21,718 nt of DNA, taken from positions 91,293-113,010 of IMG/VR virus record IMGVR_UViG_3300031867_000016. One strand, 5' to 3'. Source of the DNA: a virus (taxonomy: Duplodnaviria; Heunggongvirae; Uroviricota; Caudoviricetes). Below, one piece after another: positions 6,699 through 21,718 of the stretch; position 1 is the stretch's first letter; every line of letters starts with the position of its first letter. Made by a program: the position numbers and the translations under genes. The notes beneath the pieces were generated by a model. The model ran no database searches. It had not been told where the DNA came from and saw only the letters and a list, made by a program, of their open reading frames with translations.

Positions 6699-6881
6699 TC
6701 AATTCCAGTTACGTTTGTTATCGAATGCCAGCTTATTGTACATACCGCCGTACATTCCGATGAATTTCTCTGCTTCTTCCTGGCTTGCGCTTTCTATGTC
6801 AAAGCGCAAGCCAAGGATCTCGCAGATATCCATAATATATTTGATCTGTTCTTCCGTAGGTTTAGAGTTCATCAATCTCAT
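6699..6881 (-). CDS. Small hypothetical protein
   Basis: 60-aa ORF (or 57 aa from the ATG at 6872) filling the gap between the RNA ligase and phosphoesterase genes in the same orientation. Confidence 0.6.
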   Translation of the reverse strand: MRLMNSKPTEEQIKYIMDICEILGLRFDIESASQEEAEKFIGMYGGMYNKLAFDNKRNWN

Positions 6882-8223
6882 CCTGTGTCATGTTGTTGAT
6901 CTCACCAGATTCAACAAGCTTGTCAACTGCGATGCCAGCCAGTACCTTATAGTTATGGTTCTTCAGCTTGAATGCTGTGAACTTGCTTCTGTTGAGGATG
7001 CGTACCACAACACCTTCACGGATATGTGTCTTGCCCACAGGATCTGGACCGTCATAGTACTGCTTTGCTTTTTCCATAACATAAGCGCCGGGATCTTCGC
7101 AGTCAGAAGGAATGAAGAATGTTTCAAACAGAGGCACTGTTTCTACTCCGATCTCTCTGCATCTTTTTGCAATCTGAGCAGGGGAGTATTCAATAGTAAA
7201 GCCTTCTTCATTTGTCATAGTCATTCTGTAGACGAAGAGTTTGCAGCATGGTGCAAGATACACACCATCTTCTTCGCTTGGTTCGTACTCACCGTCAACA
7301 TCGCAGCCATAAGAGAATTCAGTTACAGGGCCATACGTGTTGAGGAATTCCTTGTCATTGACTTTCTTATTGTCAACAGTGGGCCTGATCGGCTTGCCGC
7401 CTGGTCCTGTATAGCCGACAATTTCGAAGTATACTTCTTCACCTTTGTTAAGTTTGTTCTCGAAGTGAGCAGCCATATGTTTTCTGAATTCATCGTTGCC
7501 ATAGTATCCTCCATCGAATGAATGCAGTACAACTCTGCGTGTCCCATTGATGTATTCCCATTCAGTCTTTTTGCGAGGCTTGAGATGCAGCAGCTTTTCA
7601 AACCATGTCTGCGGCAGCTCTCTGGTAACAGGAAGATATGCTGTGCGATGACTGGTACCGTCCATCTTGCATGTGATCTGAACAATGTCATTCGGTTTGA
7701 ATTCATCCAGGTTCTTATCAAGATGTTCGGTATCAATATGTTCTTCAAACAGCGGACATTCAAAAGAGATCTTTTTCTTCTTCTCTTTGTCGCTGTATGT
7801 ACGATCACTGTATGCTCTCTTTGGAAGATATTTCTGTGCAATCACAATGCCATTCAGCACTGAGATTTTGTCACCATCACGAAGTTCATTGACATTTGTA
7901 AACTTTGACAGTGAGGAGACTGGAAGACACAAGCCATCCGACTTGCTTTTACGTAGATTGATTGCCTTAACACATCTGGAATTCTCCAGATAGCCGCCGA
8001 TATTCTTGCCATTCTCGTCTGTCTTTCTGACGAGATTATTCTCTGCACAATACTCTTCACCAAGCTGTGTACCGGCAGGAAAATATACGACAAGCTGTCC
8101 TTCTGTATAGGACTTATCTACAATAATGTTATCGTCGAAGCACTGACCGACGAGAAGTCGGTCAGCGTTCGGCAGAGGCTGTAAGTTTTTAATTTTTGTT
8201 ATGTATCCACAATATTCTGCCAT
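6862..8223 (-). CDS. ATP-dependent RNA ligase, Rnl2/DRB0094-like, with N-terminal OB-fold-like domain
   Basis: Nucleotidyltransferase motif I TCKMDGTS (KxDG), FEIVG, motif IV REGVVVR and motif V AFKLKN. The N-terminus (ITKIKNLQPLPNADRL) is typical of DRB0094-family ligases. Confidence 0.88.
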   Translation of the reverse strand: MAEYCGYITKIKNLQPLPNADRLLVGQCFDDNIIVDKSYTEGQLVVYFPAGTQLGEEYCAENNLVRKTDENGKNIGGYLENSRCVKAINLRKSKSDGLCLPVSSLSKFTNVNELRDGDKISVLNGIVIAQKYLPKRAYSDRTYSDKEKKKKISFECPLFEEHIDTEHLDKNLDEFKPNDIVQITCKMDGTSHRTAYLPVTRELPQTWFEKLLHLKPRKKTEWEYINGTRRVVLHSFDGGYYGNDEFRKHMAAHFENKLNKGEEVYFEIVGYTGPGGKPIRPTVDNKKVNDKEFLNTYGPVTEFSYGCDVDGEYEPSEEDGVYLAPCCKLFVYRMTMTNEEGFTIEYSPAQIAKRCREIGVETVPLFETFFIPSDCEDPGAYVMEKAKQYYDGPDPVGKTHIREGVVVRILNRSKFTAFKLKNHNYKVLAGIAVDKLVESGEINNMTQDEIDEL

Positions 8224-12291: not shown

Positions 12292-15192
12292 TTATGCTGC
12301 CTTCTTCTTTGGTATATAATGTTTTCTTCTGTTTAATCGTTTCTGCAATGTTCTGTTTTCAGCCTGACATTCTTCGCAGCGAATCTCTCTGCTGTTGGTT
12401 CTCTGACACCATGCACCGCAATCACAGCATTCAAAGAAACCTACAGCATCCTTAGGACAAGTGTGGTTGTTGGCCCATGCCGGTATTTTCATTCCACATT
12501 TGTCACAGACTGTGTAGGTTTTCATGTTCTGTTCTATATTATTACATGCGATGTCGCCAAATACTTTCCAGAATGTCTGTTTGTGGGCAGCTTTGTTCAT
12601 GTTTGCGCCGGCAAAGAGATATTTTGCTACGGATGGATAACATTCTTCGATAGTGCCGCATTTTTCAGTGAGCTCCTGAATGATATCCTGACATACGAAG
12701 TCCATAATGGTAGCAATCTTCTGCTCAACCTTATCAGTTTCCTGAAAGGCCATGGCAGTCAGATTGGTTTTGCCTTCGTTGTCAAGCCGTACAAAGATTT
12801 CTACAGCCTGCATGTTATATGGCTGATCATTATCAGTCAAAAGCATCTGCCAATTGAATGGCGGGATATTGGAGAAGTTCATTTTCATGCGGCCTATATC
12901 ATCAAAGGCGGCACAAATTCTGTTCATTGTTGAATTGTTTGGCTTTGCATATTCTTTCGGTTCCTTGCCGGTCGTGTTGCCCGGCAGGAACCTTCTTCCA
13001 TTCTTGCTGAATTGAAAGAAGTGAGGCATACGTCCGTGCTTGCCACCAATAGCTTTATTGATTCGCTTCTTCGCTTCTGGATAGTTCTCATAGGTGTTTA
13101 CGAATCCCGTCTTGGCAGCGTCGATAACCAAATTATTGTAGAAAGTCAATGCTTCAGCCGCATATCTGTCTGGGTTGTCTTTGTTCCATAGCTTTGTCAG
13201 AGAGTTGCTGACTTGACCGATACCGCTGTATTCGTGAGCTCTCTTCAGGCCGTGATAGAATTCTCCTCTTGAAAGCTGATGAGCACCAGCTTTACCGAGA
13301 TCGAAGAACAGAGGTACGATATCAAATTTCTCGATGTTTCTCTGAGCGATGTCGCATACTTCATCATCCCCGACAACGTTGATTTGATCACCGTCAACAT
13401 CGAAAGCAAGAACCTTTGTGATAGGATCTTTCACACTGGTATAGATACCGTCTGTATAGAACCAGTTATAGATGTTCTGGTCCTTTACAACCTTGCGTAT
13501 GCAGTGTTCAAAGTTCAAGTGAGGAGATCTGAGACAGTCAACAACGTCTCTGCTGCGATAGATTTTGCATGCAACTTCTCCGTTGGCGAGAAGACCATTC
13601 GGTTCTTCGATACCAAGGAACCAGTGTTCGCATGCTGCATACCAGTCTGGTATGGCAAAGAGTCGTTTGTTTGCGATCTTGATCTTGCCAGACTTGGCAT
13701 CAAGCAGCCATTTCTTCTTGATATTTTTGAGCGTATCCCTTGTGTATGCTTCTCTGAGAAGCTCTGGATAGATGATCAGAGCTCTCTTATATGGATTGTC
13801 GGAATAATAATCTGCGTTGAGACAGTCAAGCATTGCAGCCTGACTTGAGGCAATGCCTTCAATTTTGTCATGAGTCTTCTTTGTGAATCGAGTTATCTCT
13901 TCATCGGTGAAATCAGTCAGCGTCTGAAGGAATTGATAGCACACAGTCTTATCTGGAAAGTAATCTTCCTCAAAGTTTGTATAGCATGCATGGCATTCAT
14001 TCTCTTTAAATGCCTGCTTGTACGCATCCCATGATTCATAATACTTCCAGAGTTTAAACTGGCTTTTTGTAAAAATGATCTGAATATTCTCTTCGATCAG
14101 ATCGTGTTCTTTGCCATAGATATCCTTGATCTTTGCGCTGCAGTTGTTTACTTTGCAAAACCTGATAAAGTCAAAGGAGCAGAGAAGTCCTTTTACCCAC
14201 GGCATTCTTACCATGAAATTCTTTCTGCTGATACATGGAAGCATCATGCCGGCACCGTCAACATGATTGATAACGGTCGTGTGTTCTCCGCGATCTATCA
14301 CATATTCACTGTTGATGTAGTCGCTTATGCATGTTACCGGTGCTTCAAAGTCAGGTACAACAATGGATCTGTCGATGTCGAATGTTTCCCATGGGAGAGT
14401 AGCGGAAGAGGTGAGGGCTATATAGGCAAGGAGCTTGTTGACATTGATGCCGCCAAGCTCGTTGATCTTTTCAAACGTCAGTCCGCACATCATCTTTGGC
14501 TGTATTCTGTTCCATGTATTCTCTTCCATACATGCGATCTTGTCTGTTCTCAGCTGCCCTGCAGAACTTGTAATGAATACAAACTTTTTGTTCTCAAGGT
14601 TGCCATCAGCGTCAAGAACAGGAACCAGAAAGCCGTCCTGTACAATCTGTTCCAGTATATCTTCTGACTTCCATTTCATGATGAGTTTGTTGAATGTCAC
14701 TTCTTTATCATGAAGTCCCATTGAACGACTCATTTCAGATGAGAATTCAGCGATCTTCTTGGAGGGCTTCAGCGTATTCCATGTTATGCCTTCGGGCCAG
14801 ATTACATTGTCATCTTTATCTTTATCCAGTTTTCTTGTGTCCAAAATGCCACAAAGGCGTACTGTTCTTGGTACGCCTTTGTGACCTGCTATCAGTGAAG
14901 CGAGTTTGTCCTGTTCACTTTTCTTTTCTGCTATATTCTTTTCCCGTATAGATGGATCATGGAGTGAATTCTTAGCTATTTCATCGTCTTCATGATCAAT
15001 TGTGTTTTTCAGGCTGCATATCTTCTGATATACATCCCATTCTTCCTGCGTAAACAGATCGCTGGTAGTTAAACCCATCAGATAAATCTGTTCAGACAAG
15101 TATGTCTTCTTTGCCAACGAAACCACCCCCGGTGTTTTTGTTGGGCAGGATCTCTCTTTCCCCCCATTATTGTTTTTTTCGAATGTCCACAT
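12292..15192 (-). CDS. Single-subunit two-barrel RNA polymerase, YonO-like (related to eukaryotic RdRP)
   Basis: Catalytic AFDVDGDQ (DxDGD); SSAGQLR; HVDGAGMMLP; FMVRMPWVKGLL; KSQFK; RSPH; N- and C-terminal Cys clusters. The true start may be the TTG at 15117 (MAKKTYL), preceded by GGGGTGGT; the ATG at 15192 has no SD. Confidence 0.87.
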   Translation of the reverse strand: MWTFEKNNNGGKERSCPTKTPGVVSLAKKTYLSEQIYLMGLTTSDLFTQEEWDVYQKICSLKNTIDHEDDEIAKNSLHDPSIREKNIAEKKSEQDKLASLIAGHKGVPRTVRLCGILDTRKLDKDKDDNVIWPEGITWNTLKPSKKIAEFSSEMSRSMGLHDKEVTFNKLIMKWKSEDILEQIVQDGFLVPVLDADGNLENKKFVFITSSAGQLRTDKIACMEENTWNRIQPKMMCGLTFEKINELGGINVNKLLAYIALTSSATLPWETFDIDRSIVVPDFEAPVTCISDYINSEYVIDRGEHTTVINHVDGAGMMLPCISRKNFMVRMPWVKGLLCSFDFIRFCKVNNCSAKIKDIYGKEHDLIEENIQIIFTKSQFKLWKYYESWDAYKQAFKENECHACYTNFEEDYFPDKTVCYQFLQTLTDFTDEEITRFTKKTHDKIEGIASSQAAMLDCLNADYYSDNPYKRALIIYPELLREAYTRDTLKNIKKKWLLDAKSGKIKIANKRLFAIPDWYAACEHWFLGIEEPNGLLANGEVACKIYRSRDVVDCLRSPHLNFEHCIRKVVKDQNIYNWFYTDGIYTSVKDPITKVLAFDVDGDQINVVGDDEVCDIAQRNIEKFDIVPLFFDLGKAGAHQLSRGEFYHGLKRAHEYSGIGQVSNSLTKLWNKDNPDRYAAEALTFYNNLVIDAAKTGFVNTYENYPEAKKRINKAIGGKHGRMPHFFQFSKNGRRFLPGNTTGKEPKEYAKPNNSTMNRICAAFDDIGRMKMNFSNIPPFNWQMLLTDNDQPYNMQAVEIFVRLDNEGKTNLTAMAFQETDKVEQKIATIMDFVCQDIIQELTEKCGTIEECYPSVAKYLFAGANMNKAAHKQTFWKVFGDIACNNIEQNMKTYTVCDKCGMKIPAWANNHTCPKDAVGFFECCDCGAWCQRTNSREIRCEECQAENRTLQKRLNRRKHYIPKKKAA

Positions 15193-15241
15193 TTTTTGGG
15201 GGAATATTTCAATCGTTTGCGAATTGCATGCATTTATTATC

Positions 15242-15481
15242 GAACTGTTTTTAAAATACCAACTATTTTAATTCTTATTAATAGATCACCTCCTACCTGG
15301 TGGAGGGCGCCTGCAGCTGGCTTGATCTTATGCGAAGCATCAGATCAAGCCGAGCTGCGAGGCGCCCATAACCAAGGTGGAGGTGATCTATTGGCTAGTT
15401 TCTGTGTTTCATTCGGTAATACCAGAATGATATTCTAAATTATCTTTAGAATAAATTTCTTGGTATTCTAATTCACAGTTC
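15242..15481 (-). ncRNA. Retron-like msr-msd ncRNA, unit 1 (distal)
   Basis: Flanking inverted repeat 15460-15481 / 15242-15262 (12 bp including one G-U, an internal loop, then 7 bp). An unpaired G at 15459 faces a G at 15263. SL1 15431-15453; SL2 15410-15429; 113-nt msd-like hairpin 15280-15392. Confidence 0.75.
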
Positions 15482-15489
15482 TCCAATAT

Positions 15490-15670
15490 AATAACTAACT
15501 TATTTATATCTTAGTCACAAAGCTCGCCGGCTTCAGGAAGAGCTCTTGCGGCGGTGCTTTAGCTCCGCCGCGATGAGCTCAGTCCGGAAGCCGGCGAGCT
15601 TGAAACGCCATACTGTCGCACATTCGATCATACCAGAATGCCTAAGTTTCCTTAGAATATCTTAGTTATT
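15490..15670 (-). ncRNA. Retron-like msr-msd ncRNA, unit 2
   Basis: 9-bp flanking inverted repeat 15662-15670 / 15490-15498. G at 15661 faces G at 15499. SL1 15642-15655 has a GAAA loop; SL2 15621-15640; 82-nt msd-like hairpin 15520-15601. Confidence 0.75.
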
Positions 15671-15675
15671 TAACC

Positions 15676-15853
15676 CTGTGTCTGCATAAGCAATATGTTT
15701 CCATCTAAAATTTATTTCATACGTTGATACCTCACCTGGCTATACCTAAGGAGCCAGGTGAGGTATAACAACTTTATAGTTTCATTCTTTCGGTAATACC
15801 AAAAAGAGCGTTTGTACGCTTTTCATGGAAACATATTGATTATACAGACACAG
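15676..15853 (-). ncRNA. Retron-like msr-msd ncRNA, unit 3 (proximal)
   Basis: 29-nt flanking inverted repeat (27/29 Watson-Crick) 15825-15853 / 15676-15704. G at 15824 faces G at 15705. SL1 15807-15820; SL2 15787-15806; msd-like hairpin 15723-15772 with a 15-bp perfect core. Confidence 0.8.
15839..15844 (-). promoter_or_regulatory. Candidate sigma-A -10 box (TATAAT) at the 5' end of the ncRNA array
   Basis: Perfect TATAAT on the minus strand. The -35 region is weak (TTAAAA/TAAAAT at 17-18 nt spacing). Confidence 0.3.
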
Positions 15854-15864
15854 AGCAATGCATT

Positions 15865-16284
15865 TTAAGCCGCTACGGGATAAATGCCCTTCTTTGCAAG
15901 AATCTGATAGATCATAAATTCACCTTTGCGAGTCCAATACCTGAAGCAATGACTGTTACGTTCAGGAACCGTATATCCCATGTTTTCATATTCCTTTGTC
16001 AGGTGACAGCGGTTGCCAACCATAAACATTGCATTGGCTGCAACAAGAATTCTATTCAGTTTCTTTGCGCTGATATTATATTTTTCTGCAATTTCTGTAA
16101 TTGTGAGAGATCCGCTGGCATCCAGCATATAATAATTAGCATAGTCTACCAGAGCCCTGTTCTGATTGTAGAATTCCTTATAATACTGGAGTTCTCGCTT
16201 TTCTTTTTCAAAGCTTTTGAATTCGTCTTCAAGGATCGTCTTAATTTCCTTGCAGACACGTTCGATTTTGATGTTGTGTACCAT
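15865..16284 (-). CDS. Phage antirepressor KilAC (ANT C-terminal) domain protein
   Basis: ASGSLTITEIAEKYNISAKKLNRIL...YENMGY...YWTRKGEFMIYQIL matches the KilAC pattern. The N-terminus is coiled-coil-like, with no BRO-N domain. Confidence 0.8.
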   Translation of the reverse strand: MVHNIKIERVCKEIKTILEDEFKSFEKEKRELQYYKEFYNQNRALVDYANYYMLDASGSLTITEIAEKYNISAKKLNRILVAANAMFMVGNRCHLTKEYENMGYTVPERNSHCFRYWTRKGEFMIYQILAKKGIYPVAA

Positions 16285-16298
16285 TTTTACTCTCCTTA

Positions 16299-16493
16299 TT
16301 ATCTTTCACCATCGGCACAGAACCAGTCTGACCTTTTGTAAACATCATAAATATCACACCAGTAACCTTTGAATGGCTCTGGACATTTATCTCCATACTT
16401 GCAGTCTTTGCAGCATACGACTTCTGGAAAATTCAGCTTTTCAAGCGCTTTTTCAGTGGCTTCATCAGAAGCTTCTATAATGAACTTTCTCAT
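16299..16493 (-). CDS. Small Cys-rich phage hypothetical protein
   Basis: VVCCKDCKY...YWC...DWFCADGER, a pattern common in small Bacillota phage proteins and probably Zn-binding. Confidence 0.75.
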   Translation of the reverse strand: MRKFIIEASDEATEKALEKLNFPEVVCCKDCKYGDKCPEPFKGYWCDIYDVYKRSDWFCADGER

Positions 16494-16597
16494 TTTTCAT
16501 CATCCTTATGTTTTTCGTCGTACCAGTTAAAGATTGCTCTCCATACTATTGGTGATATAATGACCAGATACCAGCCGATTGCACAGAATATTTCCAT
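16490..16597 (-). CDS. 35-aa putative single-pass membrane peptide
   Basis: Hand translation: MEIFCAIGWYLVIISPIVWRAIFNWYDEKHKDDEK. Its stop overlaps the next start (ATGA). Confidence 0.6.
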   Translation of the reverse strand: MEIFCAIGWYLVIISPIVWRAIFNWYDEKHKDDEK

Positions 16598-16598
16598 G

Positions 16599-16775
16599 TT
16601 ACTTTCTGGAATAACGACACGGTCTCATGCGAGGCATACCGCGCTTTACGAGCAGATTGTATACGCTGGGCTTGTATTTCTTATAGATCCAGCCGCCTTC
16701 AGGTGTCCTGCGTTCATAGTAGATAGCTGTTTCATTGGCATTCCATGCCTTTTCAAATTCTATGTCTTTTGTCAT
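16599..16775 (-). CDS. 58-aa hypothetical protein
   Basis: Hand translation: MTKDIEFEKAWNANETAIYYERRTPEGGWIYKKYKPSVYNLLVKRGMPRMRPCRYSRK. ATGA-coupled to the upstream ORF, with an AAGGAA SD. Confidence 0.65.
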   Translation of the reverse strand: MTKDIEFEKAWNANETAIYYERRTPEGGWIYKKYKPSVYNLLVKRGMPRMRPCRYSRK

Positions 16776-16978
16776 AGTGCATCGTTCCTTTCTTCATCTG
16801 CTATATACATGTCAAGATACCTGTTTCTGGCTTTGATAATATCATCTGTTGTAAGCTTACGATGGAGTTTGCAGTCTCTGTCGTTCATTTTGAATGACAT
16901 CTTTATACCAGTGGCATTGCGAGGAATGTCGATGAGAATTGACATCTCATCGACATAAACAGGTTCTGAGTTTTTCAT
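16772..16978 (-). CDS. 68-aa hypothetical protein
   Basis: Starts 2 nt after the RT stop, with a GAGGTG SD inside the end of the RT gene. Confidence 0.7.
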   Translation of the reverse strand: MKNSEPVYVDEMSILIDIPRNATGIKMSFKMNDRDCKLHRKLTTDDIIKARNRYLDMYIADEERNDAL

Positions 16979-16980
16979 TC

Positions 16981-18165
16981 TTACACCTCTTCATTGAATT
17001 TTACAACGGTACCATGTTTCAGATACTTGTTGATATCGATATTGAATTTCTCTGAAATGTGCGTAATGACGTATTCTGTATATTTCCTGTCAACCATTTT
17101 GTAGTATGCGATCAAGCCAAGTATCTGATTGTCGGTCTTGTCAACTTTGTCTTCAATACCGTTTCCTCTGGCAGCGACTCTTGTAAGCAGAGCCTTGAAT
17201 TCCTTCTTTTTGCGCCAGCCAATCGTAATATTGTTGTCTTTGTTGAGCATGAGACCGAGATTCCAGTTTTTACCGGCAATAGAGCCGTAACGGGTCTTCT
17301 TACTGTTGATTTCGTAATAATACCCAAGCTCAGTAAATGTGTTCTTCACAATATTGATAACATCTGTGTACTTGAATGACTGCTTGGAACTGAGCAGCAT
17401 ATCATCAGCATATCTTGTATATGTGATTCCCATTTTACGCATCTTTTTGCTGAACTCGTAATCAAACGGAATCATAATAAGATTCGTCAGAATTGGGCTG
17501 ATAACGGTACCCTGAGGCAGTCCACCGTCAAGCATGCAGATTTTGATAAGCCCAATCATTTCTGTATATACATAGTATGGAAACACATTGAATGGATGAA
17601 TATACCTCAATATGTTTTCAATCATTGCCAAGTTTGTGTTATCAAAGAATGAATGAAGATCGAGCTTAAGAAACCACTTCGATTCATTCTTCTTGTGCTT
17701 ATTCAGGCAGTTGATAATATTCTTCTTCTTGATATAAGCACATGCTGATGCATGATAGCCACAATTCGGAAACATTTCCTCAATAAGGCTCTTGATCATT
17801 CGGTGAAGATACCGCAGCGTTTTATCGGGATCGCGAATAATGCGTACACCGCCAGATTTCTTCGGGATCTCATATACCTTGTAGTGATCTTTGAGATCTG
17901 GATTGGCGACAAGCATTTCTGAATGATTTCTCATGACGTAATTGTAAAGATGTTTTATGTCTTTCTCGTACTTGGCATAGTTCTTTACCATTGTACCGTC
18001 AAAATAATTAGTAGAATATTTGCGGGTCACAGTTGTAGGAACTTTACGCTTTTCAGCTTTTACAAACTGATCCTCGCTGACTTCCTGCTCCAACATGGAC
18101 ATGAAGTCTGGACTTTTACTTTTTCTGTAAACAAAAATTGGCTTGTTAACATAAACTTCAGCCAT
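16981..18165 (-). CDS. Reverse transcriptase, retron-like
   Basis: 394 aa. YEIPKKSGGVRIIRDP; ACAY...NCLNKH (region X, NAxxH-like); LKLDLHSFF; GLPQGTVISPILTN; YTRYADDMLLS; NLGLMLN at the region Y (VTG) position. No maturase or endonuclease domain. Confidence 0.92.
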   Translation of the reverse strand: MAEVYVNKPIFVYRKSKSPDFMSMLEQEVSEDQFVKAEKRKVPTTVTRKYSTNYFDGTMVKNYAKYEKDIKHLYNYVMRNHSEMLVANPDLKDHYKVYEIPKKSGGVRIIRDPDKTLRYLHRMIKSLIEEMFPNCGYHASACAYIKKKNIINCLNKHKKNESKWFLKLDLHSFFDNTNLAMIENILRYIHPFNVFPYYVYTEMIGLIKICMLDGGLPQGTVISPILTNLIMIPFDYEFSKKMRKMGITYTRYADDMLLSSKQSFKYTDVINIVKNTFTELGYYYEINSKKTRYGSIAGKNWNLGLMLNKDNNITIGWRKKKEFKALLTRVAARGNGIEDKVDKTDNQILGLIAYYKMVDRKYTEYVITHISEKFNIDINKYLKHGTVVKFNEEV

Positions 18166-18182
18166 GTTGAAACTTCCTTTCT

Positions 18183-18869
18183 TTATGCTGCGTCGATTGT
18201 AAAATTAAAAGCATCAATGAGAATGATGCTCTTCAATTCGCCGCTTTTTACGAAATTGATAAAATTTGCGACTCCTGCCGCGCAGATCATTCGTACAGTT
18301 GGACAGACCGATAATGACAAATTACATGCGCTAACAGGTGTTTCGGCTTGTGCTTCTTCGCTGGTAAAGTTCATTCCTTCGAAGAAATTCGCAATATCAG
18401 CCGGTTTTGACCAGTCAGCAGCATAATGCTGCGCGTCTGTCAGTCTCATGCGATAATCGAACATCGCTTTGATATTCAGGTTGTATTTGTTGTCAGTAAC
18501 GATTTTCTTGCGAAGTTCAATACTGTCAACTGCCAGAATGACGTAACCAGACAGTCTCTGACCGATATAGCCTTCTTTGACAATTTTGAGTGTGCCGGCA
18601 TTATTCAGTTCCGGGTTAATGGCTTTCAGGTGCTCTGCGAGTGCTTCAACCTTATATTTGCCAATATCTGCCTCTGTATAAAGCTGATTGGCAATATTGT
18701 GACTTTCGACCGTATCGAAATCATACAGGGTAATTTTGGTAATACCGAAACGAGTAAGGTTTTCAGCAACAGTCGAACCAATCGCGCCGCATCCTATGAT
18801 GTGGATGCGGTCGCGAAGTTTCTCAGGCTGAAAGAAATCATATGACTTTACGATATTCATTCCAGTCAC
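18183..18869 (-). CDS. ThiF/E1-like adenylating enzyme
   Basis: IIGCGAIGS, YDFDTVESHNIANQ, KYKVEAL and AVDSIELRK. The Zn-binding CxxC pairs of ThiF/MoeB are absent. A candidate catalytic Cys lies in PVSAC. Confidence 0.9.
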   Translation of the reverse strand: MTGMNIVKSYDFFQPEKLRDRIHIIGCGAIGSTVAENLTRFGITKITLYDFDTVESHNIANQLYTEADIGKYKVEALAEHLKAINPELNNAGTLKIVKEGYIGQRLSGYVILAVDSIELRKKIVTDNKYNLNIKAMFDYRMRLTDAQHYAADWSKPADIANFFEGMNFTSEEAQAETPVSACNLSLSVCPTVRMICAAGVANFINFVKSGELKSIILIDAFNFTIDAA

Positions 18870-19618
18870 CTCTGATAACTGTAGTACGAATAATTGTCAT
18901 CATTTTCGTAATAATTTGCCAGTTTCTTGTCTTCAGAGCCCATCAGCCGGGTTCCTTTGGTTGAATAGGAAACATTTGTTACTTTTGTTACCTTCTTGTC
19001 GGCATCTTCGAGAATATCCCAGATAGATGTATCATCATCAAATATAACATCGATACAGAGATCTTCCTCGTCATAGACCATGCCAGTCTCCATATCGTAA
19101 AGCTCCCAAGACCATGCGCCTTTCTTGTTGAAAATGCCGAAAATGAGATAGCCGGTATCTCCGAACTGAGAGATAAGATCTGTGCGTTCTCTCATATCGA
19201 CATTGCTTGGATTGGTACCCATATTAACATGAGAATGCCCATAGAAGCGGATTTTGTTGAATATGTCGTCAGGAAGTGCATTTTTCCATTCGTCATATTC
19301 CTTTTCATCGGTATCAACAGTCGCTGCGGATACTTTCTGCGGAAATACGAGAATGTCGGTAATGACAAAGATCTTCTTATCAGGATGCTCAACAATGCCT
19401 CTCCAGCCGATTTCCGAGTCGTAGCAATTGATGAGCGTATACATCTTGATATAGGCTTTCGGAGTAAAGAGAACCTGAATCGGATCATCCGAAACAGTCT
19501 TCTTCAGCGTGGTTGTATACGAGATATTGCCACCAGTGAATTTACCATTCAGTAATTTGGTGGAAAAGTCAGACATAAGCTGTTCATAGATTTCATTCGT
19601 CAGTCTGAACGGTTTCAT
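18866..19618 (-). CDS. JAB/MPN (JAMM) metallo-isopeptidase
   Basis: Catalytic Glu in SEIGW and an exact JAMM motif, H-S-H-x7-S-x2-D (HSHVNMGTNPSNVD). Confidence 0.9.
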   Translation of the reverse strand: MKPFRLTNEIYEQLMSDFSTKLLNGKFTGGNISYTTTLKKTVSDDPIQVLFTPKAYIKMYTLINCYDSEIGWRGIVEHPDKKIFVITDILVFPQKVSAATVDTDEKEYDEWKNALPDDIFNKIRFYGHSHVNMGTNPSNVDMRERTDLISQFGDTGYLIFGIFNKKGAWSWELYDMETGMVYDEEDLCIDVIFDDDTSIWDILEDADKKVTKVTNVSYSTKGTRLMGSEDKKLANYYENDDNYSYYSYQR

Positions 19619-20528
19619 TCTTTTCGTCTCCTAATAAAATAATTGGATCGATTTCGGTGATAGGGTAGGCTGCGGCCTTCTGATGGCCTCCGCCTCCGTG
19701 CTGTTTTGCAATTTCGCTGAGATCAGGTGAATGATCCAGTCCACGAAGATGAACGGATTTACCCATTTCAATCACAGCAACATAATCAATATTTGTACCG
19801 TATTTGGTTGCAATCGTGTTGCCGACGAGGGAAATATTGTTTTCAGCATAAACACAGGCAATTTTATGCCCATTTGCTTCGATAATTTTGGCCTCATCAG
19901 TCTTACGATCTGTATATTCATGGGCCTGTTCTTCCTTGTATTTGATGAATTTGAGAATAGTTTCATCAAAAAGCTGGAATGATGCGTAAGGATGATCAGT
20001 GATGGTATCAATGACATATTTGATAAATGTGTCATGATCGACCATGTAGCAGAAATGGTTCAGCTGCTGAGGAAGACCGAGTTTGGTTTTGTCAAAGCGA
20101 TATGTATCATATTCCGCTACTGCGTCTGCAAAACTCATAATTGCAGTCACGGCTTCATCAAAGAAGCATCTTGCTGCGATGGATGTTGCGCTGTCGATGC
20201 CATTAACTACGATTCTGCACCACGGATAATTCATGTGTTCTGAGGTCTTATGGTGATCCATCAAACGAACCTTGAGCGTATTGCCATAGCTGTTGACAGT
20301 CTTGTCGATCTTTTCTGCAAGTTCATCGCTGATAGACAGATCAGTGATGAGCAGTGCCGCTGATACCTTATTGCCATTATCCAGATAGTCATTGATTTCT
20401 TTCTCAACATTGTCATAATCGACATAGTGAGTTTCGATCTCATCGCCAGTCATACGGGCGTAGAGCTGTGCCAGAGCAGCACAGCTCACGCCGTCAAGGT
20501 CTGTATGTGTGAAATGGTAAATTTTCAC
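19593..20528 (-). CDS. DHH/DHHA1 phosphoesterase (NrnA/NrnB oligoribonuclease-like)
   Basis: THTDLDG, ITDLS, MDHH, YDTY and C-terminal GGGGHQKAA. Confidence 0.92.
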   Translation of the reverse strand: MKIYHFTHTDLDGVSCAALAQLYARMTGDEIETHYVDYDNVEKEINDYLDNGNKVSAALLITDLSISDELAEKIDKTVNSYGNTLKVRLMDHHKTSEHMNYPWCRIVVNGIDSATSIAARCFFDEAVTAIMSFADAVAEYDTYRFDKTKLGLPQQLNHFCYMVDHDTFIKYVIDTITDHPYASFQLFDETILKFIKYKEEQAHEYTDRKTDEAKIIEANGHKIACVYAENNISLVGNTIATKYGTNIDYVAVIEMGKSVHLRGLDHSPDLSEIAKQHGGGGHQKAAAYPITEIDPIILLGDEKNETVQTDE

Positions 20529-21718
20529 TTATTGCCTCCTTGAAGAATGTCAAGTACTTCGAGCGCAGTATAGAGTTTTCCGTCTTTATCTTCATAGATC
20601 TTTTCTTCAGAATGTCTGCCGTAAATGTCCTGCATGAATCTGGTCATGGTTGGAGTTTCCTGCAGATTGACACTTGCCGCTGAAAGCTGACATGTAGTAA
20701 TTGCTCCAGGAATGTCGCCATCCATTAGATACCTGACGATTGCAGACTGATAACCACCGAGACAGCTGAAATAACCGATATGCGGATTGATCATTCTTGT
20801 ATCGTCAACCGTATCCAGACTGTATCTGTCCAATGCACAAACGGAACTTTCTTTAAGGTTGAATTTGTAGCCAGCCTTCATTCGCATTCTGAATGTTTTG
20901 CTGTACAGCGCAGTCATGAACAGTTTCTTGTTGTCATCGTCAATGAAATGTTCATTGATACCAACATATTCCTGACCTTCACCATCAAGATAAAACAGGC
21001 TCTTCTTGTCTTCCAGCATTGATTCGAATACATCTTCGTCGTATTCCTCAAAATATGTATTGACTTCAAAGCGGAAAGTGGCATTGCCGTTGTTGGCTCC
21101 TGTGACAATAATGTTGTCGTTGTTTGTGATAAATTCCAGAATATGATCTTCCTTATCGTTCATATTTCTGTAGGCAATGAGTCTCAGGTTATTGTCCTGA
21201 ATTTGCTGATTCAACGAAGAAATTTCATCAAAGTAGCGGTCGATGTTCCGTTTGATGCTTTCGTTCTGATCTTTGATCTTTGTCATCTGTGCTTCATGGA
21301 TATTCTTTGTGAACCCGTTAAGCAAATACTCAGTTCTCATCTTATTGAAGCATTTCTGCTTAAGCGCATAAAGAATATTGATGGTTTCTGAATAGTGAGG
21401 TCCACCTGGTCTATCATCGTAGAAGAATGACGCAAGATATGCCTTTTCTTCATCAGTCAGAGGCTTTTCCTCGAAATACCATGGTGCCAGTCTGCGGAAG
21501 AGACCGCAGAAATAATGAAATGTCTCGACAGACATTTTGTTGGTAATAATAATTGATCTTTTGATTGTCGGATTGATGAATACCCGACATGTGAGGAAAT
21601 CCTCAATTTTATGATTAATATCAGGCTGTTCGATCCAGCCTTCGGGAATTTCGAAATTCAGTGTAATGGTGCCATGCCGCTGCATGTTGATAATAAAGAG
21701 AATGTTTTCTTCGTCATC
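20525..21718 (-). CDS. Putative E2-like (ubiquitin-conjugating fold) protein with N-terminal coiled coil, 5' end outside window
   Basis: C-terminal INPHIGYFSCLGGY resembles the E2 signature HPN/HPH-(x)n-CL, and it lies next to JAB and E1 genes. The 33 nt upstream of the ATG at 21685 are in frame and open (DDEENILFIIN), so the gene continues past the window. Confidence 0.6.
   Translation of the reverse strand, partial: DDEENILFIINMQRHGTITLNFEIPEGWIEQPDINHKIEDFLTCRVFINPTIKRSIIITNKMSVETFHYFCGLFRRLAPWYFEEKPLTDEEKAYLASFFYDDRPGGPHYSETINILYALKQKCFNKMRTEYLLNGFTKNIHEAQMTKIKDQNESIKRNIDRYFDEISSLNQQIQDNNLRLIAYRNMNDKEDHILEFITNNDNIIVTGANNGNATFRFEVNTYFEEYDEDVFESMLEDKKSLFYLDGEGQEYVGINEHFIDDDNKKLFMTALYSKTFRMRMKAGYKFNLKESSVCALDRYSLDTVDDTRMINPHIGYFSCLGGYQSAIVRYLMDGDIPGAITTCQLSAASVNLQETPTMTRFMQDIYGRHSEEKIYEDKDGKLYTALEVLDILQGGNK

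Follow-up and report, generated by a model that had tools for sequence, protein, structure and literature searches.

A reverse transcriptase (RT) gene in a large uncultured phage probably forms the centre of a new, phage-borne type of retron, with a set of genes for ubiquitin-like protein (Ubl) conjugation as its partner module. The gene lies at positions 16981–18165 (minus strand) of a 21,718-nucleotide stretch, hereafter the window, which covers positions 91,293 to 113,010 of IMG/VR record IMGVR_UViG_3300031867_000016. The source genome is a 113-kb contig from a bovine gut (rumen) sample. Retrons are known as toxin-type defences of bacteria, with one template RNA each. A clade of large gut and rumen phages, in contrast, keeps a retron-type RT with several fast-changing templates that is tied to Ubl conjugation.

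The RT is a protein of 394 aa that was assigned by Pfam, PADLOC, NCBIfam and Protein Data Bank (PDB) matches. As judged from its sequence, the catalytic site (YADD) is intact, since IPKKSGGVR, LPQG and YTRYADD are all present in the open reading frame (ORF). Pfam RVT_1 scores 93 bits. The best 25 PADLOC matches are all retron RT models, led by type II-A with 172 bits and followed closely by types I-A and III-A; as these scores stand so close together, no single retron type fits the enzyme. The top NCBIfam model is retron_St85_RT (NF038233, 184 bits), while the group II intron RT (90 bits), Drt2 (53 bits) and Drt3a (41 bits) score lower. The closest solved structures are likewise the retron RTs Ec78, Ec83, Ec67 and Ec86, with PDB E-values of 3e-21 for retron RTs against 4e-14 for a group II intron RT. 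On these profile comparisons, the RT is closer to retron RT profiles than to other RT classes. Features of group II introns were not found: Rfam matched nothing in the window at E ≤ 1, and TIGR04416 reaches 90 bits where its cut-off is 300. Similarity to solved retron RTs begins at about residue 93, which corresponds to about residue 27 of Ec78, giving an N-terminal extension of about 65 aa. The N-terminal 65–90 or so residues are kept across the clade, and Tyr5 and Thr45 are nearly invariant in the clade alignment. A preliminary description made from the letters of the window had proposed a retron-type RT with the core motifs IPKKSGGxR, PQG and YTRYADD and an N-terminal extension of about 60 aa. 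The ranking of retron models first in PADLOC, NCBIfam and PDB, the motifs of an intact active site and the clade-conserved offset against Ec78 bear out all three proposals.

Regions X and Y had also been called atypical, and the alignment agrees, with the same split between 52 clade members and 42 bacterial retron RTs. When the RT is aligned with that of Ec78, NAAAH of region X pairs with CLNKH (the window reads NCLNKH) and VTG of region Y pairs with NLG. Thus only the His of NAxxH and the Gly of VTG are retained. These two are the most conserved residues of both motifs (Mestre et al. 2020, PMC7736814). The alignment comprised 42 bacterial retron RTs, 34 clade members from species-representative genomes and 18 clade RTs from the window and 17 phage loci. 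Across the clade, region X reads xDAxK(R/K)H, of which NCLNKH is the variant of the window's subclade, and region Y reads N(W)xLG, with NLG placed within an almost invariant NWNLG (52/52 members). The bacterial retron RTs in the same scan have NAxxH in 37 of 42 cases and (V/I)TG in region Y. At the boundary between the clade and the bacterial retron RTs, the tblastn score falls from 134 to 114 bits. In a tree holding only the clade and the 42 bacterial retron RTs, with no non-retron outgroup, the phage clade is monophyletic (support 0.82) and set apart by a stem of 1.23 substitutions per site. The clade amounts to more than 500 phage contigs (gut Clostridia, SPbeta-like), and its RTs have diverged to 35% identity. 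Its members in genome collections sit in metagenome bins of Oscillospiraceae, Lachnospiraceae and Christensenellales. Clade contigs in Clostridia genome bins reach 278 kb, from which it follows that the phages may be temperate. Recognition rules for retron RTs that rely on NAxxH and VTG hence overlook a large lineage.

The candidate templates lie in a 672-nt spacer (15193–15864), the minus strand of which folds into three modules in tandem with a minimum-free-energy z of -26. In each module, the 5' arm (a1) is followed by a G and a brief linker of A and U; then come three hairpins, namely the variable P1, the conserved P2 and the long P3, and after an A/U-rich stretch running to AG the module closes with the 3' arm (a2). 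This layout is that of a retron msr-msd RNA. The three non-coding RNA (ncRNA) units, all on the minus strand, were delimited by the minimum-free-energy fold, a helix table and matches to the R1 covariance model. Unit A (15673–15856; R1 match 31.9 bits) consists of a1 at 15856–15825 (17 + 14 bp), G at 15824, P1 at 15820–15807, P2 at 15805–15787, P3 at 15766–15727 and a2 at 15704–15673; its arms pair over 31 bp and its P3 stem has 15 bp. Unit B (15490–15670; 34.2 bits) has a1 at 15670–15656, G at 15661, P1 at 15655–15642, P2 at 15641–15620, P3 at 15606–15514 and a2 at 15504–15490, with arms of 13 bp and a P3 of about 32 bp. Unit C (15235–15488; 36.6 bits) has a1 at 15488–15460, G at 15459, P1 at 15453–15431, P2 at 15430–15409, P3 at 15392–15280 and a2 at 15262–15235, with arms of 24 bp in three segments and a P3 of about 49 bp. 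A G follows a1 in all three window units (15824, 15661 and 15459), and the same holds for 20 of the 41 units from relatives; the three window units also each have AG before a2. A sigma-70-like promoter match (TTAAAA-18-TATAAT, 10/12) is present at 15839–15868 (minus), with a frequency no higher than in shuffled sequences. Its -10 box falls within the outer arm of this first unit, unit A, and a start there would put the 5' end of the RNA at the 14-bp inner arm.

The position of these units differs from that in most known retrons, and the relatives account for it. The first structured unit starts at 15856, 1124 nt past the RT stop, and five small ORFs (68, 58, about 35, 64 and 139 aa; 15865–16978, minus, from ORF calls) lie in between. 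On the other side, the E1 gene stops at 18183 and the RT starts at 18165. As a gap of only 17 nt is left, a template does not fit upstream. The preliminary description had noted both this lack of room for an upstream msr-msd and candidate templates 1.1 kb downstream past five small ORFs; both statements stand, and the candidates proved to be three retron-shaped RNAs. Its further statement that the RT is separated from its ncRNA is correct for the window and fails as a general trait, since relatives carry a unit just upstream of the RT. In L082, L071, L088, L075 and L037, one unit lies between E1 and RT, the classical retron position, and more units follow downstream, with seven in L075. In L007, the first unit starts about 10 nt past the RT stop, its P2 hairpin being about 40 nt downstream. 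Because relatives hold units upstream of the RT or directly after its stop, the 1.1-kb separation results from inserted small genes and is a local feature of a subclade in which the E1–RT spacer was lost. Units of another kind were observed in the subclades L008, L023, L020 and L050, which have repeated units with a 5-bp stem and a 10-nt loop of other sequence. In L008 (5690–5990 and 7180–7730) and L023 (7390–7760 and 8885–9240), the RT is flanked by units having a different 10-nt loop and then TAACAA. Templates of this type are 200–300 nt long, T-poor and weakly structured, and have no GC-rich hairpin.

The link between the RNAs and the RT is seen in P2, which is built from a 5-bp stem, a single bulged base, the stem GGU/A(C/U)C and a loop of 3 nt. 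The 113-kb genome holds three copies of this motif, all within the 672-nt spacer. In 78 related loci, the RT strand has 572 matches to the loop alone, 41 of which form a perfect 5-bp stem, whereas the opposite strand has 571 with only 6 such stems; about 0.7% (some 4 of 572) would be expected by chance. These 41 perfect-stem matches have 25 different stem sequences, and 35 of them lie within 2.5 kb of the RT. Moreover, a P2 covariance model yields 43 matches at E ≤ 0.05 in 980 kb, all on the RT strand. Pair counts from the seed alignment are biased, as the seeds were picked for pairing, and the contrast between strands is therefore the fair test. The exact 17-nt P2 pattern has 18 single matches in IMG/VR, which is about the chance estimate, and a 32-nt pattern had no matches in JGI metagenomes.

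In contrast to P2, the long P3 hairpins change rapidly between closely related strains. Contigs from other sequencing runs were aligned to positions 14900–18900, from which they differ overall by 1.9–3.4%. In strain X4, positions 15275–15393, which contain the P3 of unit C (15280–15392), are replaced by 74 other letters. In strain X2, the inner part of the unit B P3 (15531–15607) is swapped for a diverged stretch of equal length. Over 92 nt, the unit C P3 of the same strain carries at least 11 substitutions plus one insertion (about 12%), whereas the remainder of this contig piece shows 10 differences over about 540 nt (1.9%). Within its 10-bp helix, two pairs have changed in a compensatory manner, namely 15344/15326 from A-T to T-A and 15347/15323 from A-T to G-C. 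Altogether, two of the three P3 hairpins are replaced or about 12% diverged in strains that are about 97% identical. The positional counterparts in L002 have arms in common with the window units and unrelated hairpins. A second copy of any P3 was found neither in the 113-kb genome nor in 90 related loci, where only chance matches of up to 12 nt occur. Such fast turnover that keeps the hairpin shape fits an arms race, in either direction.

The Ubl genes are also tied to the RT. Among 90 loci fetched by the RT, the same strand upstream carries E1 in 85, a JAB metallopeptidase in 84 and an E2-like gene in 81, and the loci without them are contigs cut just before the RT. Conversely, 80 loci were fetched by E1 alone; the RT lies downstream in 79, and the remaining contig ends 333 nt after E1, so that all usable loci (79/79) have it. 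The reciprocal linkage (79/79 and 85/85) argues for one system and not for two passengers. No PADLOC effector model matched the neighbours of the RT, except the E1-E2 models on E1, and none of the effector families of retron types I–XIII in PADLOC adjoins it. The term 'ThiF' is absent from the text of Mestre et al. 2020 (PMC7736814). The set of Ubl, E2-like, JAB and E1 genes occupies the place that the effector has in bacterial retrons. The earlier remark that no recognisable effector is adjacent was thus misleading, since this set is near-invariably linked (E1 in 85/90; 79/79 reciprocally). A complex prediction of E1, the E2-like domain and the RT gave a score of 0.00, which is informative neither way.

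Directly upstream of the RT, the E1-like (ThiF family) adenylating enzyme of 228 aa (18183–18869, minus) is recognised by Pfam ThiF (1.6e-24) and the PADLOC E1-E2 models. Its nucleotide loop GCGAIGS is present, and with 48–78% identity in the alignment it is the best-conserved gene of the module. The next gene encodes a JAB/JAMM metallopeptidase of 250 aa (18866–19618, minus), identified by its motif E...HSHx7Sx2D (E69, H128-S-H130, S138 and D141), which is invariant in 26 homologues; one homologue has a weak Prok-JAB match. JAB homologues in related loci have low-complexity Tyr/Asp-rich tails, a subset of which end in ...Y(L/M)GG(K/R), a Ubl-like di-glycine end. A DHH/DHHA1 phosphoesterase of 311 aa follows at 19593–20528 (minus), on the basis of weak Pfam DHH and DHHA1 matches, PHROG 4771 (1e-19) and a weak NCBIfam RecJ match. 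Its motifs DxD, DHH and GGGH are present, and the gene occurs only in the window's subclade (7/90 loci).

The large protein further upstream is regarded with moderate confidence as E2-like, based on alignment and predicted structure. Its C-terminal 386 aa are encoded in the window (20525–21718, minus), where the ORF is cut off by the end of the contig. The final 127 nt (112884–113010; window 21592–21718) are repeated at 108–234 and not at position 1, which indicates that the contig closes on itself; the first 107 nt look like an assembly oddity. Reading through the junction lengthens the ORF by about 84 residues to about 470 aa, as in its homologues. It comprises a coiled coil and then a UBC/RWD-like domain, in which H302, C308, G310 and N340 are invariant (NPH...C). 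The model has a predicted local distance difference test score (pLDDT) of 85, and residues 178–357 show the element order of the UBC fold. In VIA-align, RWD domains (Z 6.5–7.8) and the bacterial E2 8tyz_C (Z 6.0 over residues 178–339) rank above the other non-coiled-coil rows. Additionally, there is a weak Prok-E2_D lead from Atlas. A Foldseek search of the model against PDB returned nothing, and the AlphaFold DB clusters gave one homologue and one weak UBC-named row. [quoted passage not shown]

Because the contig closes on itself, the Ubl gene stands directly upstream of the E2-like gene. It encodes a 203-aa protein with a beta-grasp Ubl fused to a 125-aa domain, assigned by model and homologues (G000:C1:531–1142, minus, outside the window), and Ubl homologues precede the E2-like gene in 74 of 90 loci. 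The first 70 residues of the model (pLDDT 95, with a confidence dip at the fusion junction) match SUMO, ubiquitin, ISG15 and UBL domains in Foldseek (1e-4 to 2e-3; about 72–80 residues, 3.0–3.6 Å). In most loci the gene is split into a 130-aa gene and then a 75-aa Ubl gene, whereas in the window's subclade the two are fused with the Ubl first. The 75-aa product ends in ...VVKADNA plus 0–3 residues, and splitting or fusion takes place exactly at DNA|A; in the window's subclade the fusion is at ...ENA|A. The C-terminus of the Ubl is accordingly Ala and not Gly-Gly, and no conserved Gly-Gly end was found on the RT, E1, JAB or E2-like proteins. A Ubl that has to be trimmed by a peptidase usually shows itself by a conserved C-terminus that bears short variable tails or runs on into a fusion, and this Ubl is probably released by JAB at ...ENA|A. 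No Pfam family matches the 130-aa domain, which may be the partner or target of the Ubl. In some relatives (L008 878–1522), an RNase H gene with Cauli_VI and RNase_H domains adjoins the Ubl genes and precedes the RT by a few genes; bacterial retrons require host RNase H1 to finish their multicopy single-stranded DNA (msDNA).

Taken in this way, the RT would recognise the conserved P2 hairpin in each of the three tandem ncRNAs, would be primed on the G that follows the 5' arm, and would copy each P3 into a stem-loop single-stranded DNA. The partner module would not be a toxin, and would comprise the Ubl with its fused 125-aa domain, E1, the E2-like protein with its conserved Cys and JAB, together here with the DHH phosphoesterase. 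The RT-DNA complex could act as a sensor or regulator of the conjugation machinery, as in bacterial tripartite retrons. The system would act in conflicts between phages or between phage and host, and the fast change of the hairpins is proposed to result from this. Its role may be either to protect the lysogen against other phages or to aid the phage against its host. The former is the known role of retrons, of Bil and of E1/E2/JAB sets of the CBASS type, while the latter is favoured by the core position within the replication block and by the retention of the module across a deep clade. The preliminary description had suggested that the retron has been repurposed, which is possible and, as written, unsupported; a prophage-borne defence role is at least as likely. 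A bolder and rather unlikely version is that reverse transcription and Ubl tagging form one machine, in which strain-swapped hairpin DNAs set when or on what Ubl, E1 and E2 conjugate. For example, the RT-DNA complex might hold E2 or E1 in check, or bring in a DNA-binding target.

Several points weigh against a retron with a Ubl partner. The RT falls below the curated cut-off of retron_St85_RT (184 vs 235 bits) and is without the N-A of NAxxH and the V-T of VTG. No Rfam family matches the template RNAs; the Rfam scan of the window gave one chance microRNA match and no known RNA family. The arms of unit B are short (9 + 4 bp), and in a longest-helix test the a1/a2 arms of 41 units did no better than shuffled controls, a test that is blunted by G-U pairs and AT-rich sequence. 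Contigs from RNA runs cover only 16391–16610 and 18576–18900 at a depth of 2–4, that is, parts of the E1 gene and the small ORFs, and could be carry-over of DNA; they do not count as evidence of transcription and bear on neither the RT nor the RNAs. The msDNA, its 2'-5' branch and the expression of the RNAs are predictions. The E2 assignment draws on middling structural scores (Z 6–7.8) and a motif. Furthermore, the functional coupling of the RT and the Ubl set is inferred, and the proteins of that set are not known to be physically linked to the RT.

Other explanations were weighed against the same evidence. The RT-made hairpin DNAs may be abundant counter-defence decoys that soak up or mislead host sensors or nucleases in lytic growth, with the neighbouring Ubl system being a separate host-takeover tool that merely travels along. 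We consider this doubtful. It would suit a module that stands inside the replication block, on the strand of the replication genes, with overlapping or tightly spaced genes, that is retained across a clade with RTs down to 35% identity, and whose hairpins evolve fast yet retain their shape. A published metagenome survey, which describes viral retron-like RT clusters RTC3 and RTC5 in gut tailed phages, offers the speculation that such viral RTs might get in the way of the host's defences (PMC13681634), and this also speaks for decoys. However, the reciprocal linkage (79/79 and 85/85) argues for a single system, no known anti-defence family matches, and defence by a prophage fits equally if the phages are temperate, as the Clostridia bins and contigs of up to 278 kb allow. 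It is considerably less probable that the hairpin array is unrelated to the RT and consists of regulatory, terminator or origin elements before the gene of the YonO-like RNA polymerase described below. In the window's subclade the array does lie directly upstream of that gene inside the replication module, and the sigma-70-like promoter match overlaps unit A, though at chance frequency. Nevertheless, yonO is near only 12 of the 90 RT loci, whereas in 35 of 41 cases P2 lies no more than 2.5 kb away from the RT; it is always on the RT strand and often between E1 and RT. The hairpins are also without T-tracts, and origins or terminators are not expected to swap between strains 97% identical.

The remaining alternatives concern what the RT does with its templates. 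Priming by a protein, or template-free synthesis, as in AbiK and some defence-associated reverse transcriptases (DRTs), might be served by the conserved N-terminal extension with its nearly invariant Tyr at 5 and Thr at 45, and changes are seen in regions X and Y, on which priming and recognition of the msr depend in retrons. Still, Abi and DRT models score far below retron models, and across the whole clade the RT comes with a covarying RNA hairpin that is specific to one strand, so that an RT not using its RNAs in the retron manner appears improbable. Least credible is that the RT makes DNA for editing, either by mutagenic homing of the diversity-generating retroelement (DGR) kind or as donor for the Sak-like annealing protein of the phage. 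That protein, an SSB and exonucleases lie 5–7 kb away, and the template hairpins are hypervariable. On the other hand, a DGR-like target is argued against because no P3 has a second copy in the 113-kb genome or the 90 related loci (chance matches of 12 nt at most). The RT is also not of DGR type, and the variable part is the template itself, a self-complementary hairpin.

A phage-borne retron with a Ubl partner would share several features with bacterial tripartite retrons. The RT belongs to the same family, nearest to the St85/Sen2 (type II-A) and Ec78/Ec83 (type I-A) groups; the ncRNA is flanked by inverted arms, with a G behind the 5' one, and combines small hairpins on its 5' side with a long hairpin as template; and a conserved set of partner genes adjoins the RT. 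The phage system differs from them in having three tandem templates, placed 1.1 kb downstream instead of upstream, and an RT that keeps only the His and Gly of regions X and Y and bears an extra N-terminal 65 aa or so. Moreover, its partner set of Ubl, E1, E2-like protein and JAB is outside the 13 described effector types, and the system stands in the core of a large phage genome. With Bil (bacterial ISG15-like) systems and with Cap2/Cap3 of type II CBASS (cyclic-oligonucleotide-based anti-phage signalling system), the phage shares a co-encoded Ubl or Ubl-like tail, E1 and JAB and, putatively, an E2 with catalytic Cys, and its E2-like domain aligns to the bacterial E2 of PDB 8tyz (Z 6.0). Unlike these systems, the phage set has no cyclase and a Ubl ending in ...DNA instead of Gly-Gly. 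In its clade, the Ubl is fused to or beside a domain of 130 aa without a recognised fold family, the E2-like protein has a coiled coil and a length of about 470 aa, and the set is always joined to an RT and carried by phages. Retron arrays have been described as an engineering device (bioRxiv 10.1101/2023.07.17.549397). Those engineered multitrons resemble the window in that one RT is combined with several retron RNAs in series, whereas the array in the window is natural and no target with homology to its hairpins was found. The surveyed clusters RTC3 and RTC5 (PMC13681634) are also retron-related RTs in gut tailed phages and were compared by description only; the survey gives the clusters without RNAs, gene neighbourhood or hairpin variation. 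A literature search found no paper that joins a retron-type RT to E1/JAB genes and none on natural retron arrays. If the RT and the Ubl set do cooperate, two separately studied areas, defence RTs and bacterial Ubl tagging, would be joined; and if they worked as one machine, this would be nucleic-acid-programmed protein tagging in a virus of bacteria. A natural multi-template retron is additionally of interest for making several DNAs per cell.

The surroundings of the RT are those of a phage replication block. Besides the annealing protein, the window encodes a family A polymerase, exonucleases, an RNA ligase, a primase-helicase and SSB, and the RT/Ubl module is embedded in this block. No nucleotide match was found among GenBank phages, where the sole record with both E1 and RT is MT835544.1, an uncultured 35-kb contig, and a protein scan of JGI metagenomes gave two distant loci only. 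A tRNA search found none. The small ORFs between the RT and the RNAs vary between relatives; only the 58-aa ORF recurs, in the L002 group, and the last of the five, of 139 aa, has a KilAC/ANT domain. The 64-aa ORF (16299–16493, minus) encodes a Cys-rich protein (CCKDC...C...C...C) that is possibly zinc-binding. A 966-aa protein encoded at 12292–15192 (minus) has a DVDGD motif and is a YonO homologue, with 34–36% identity over more than 90%. YonO is the single-subunit RNA polymerase of SPbeta-like phages, and its homologue places the phage near the SPbeta-like phages of Firmicutes. The RNA ligase gene (PHROG 968) lies at 6862–8223 (minus) within the replication block, and in relatives, RNA ligase/kinase-phosphatase genes are found near the RT module.

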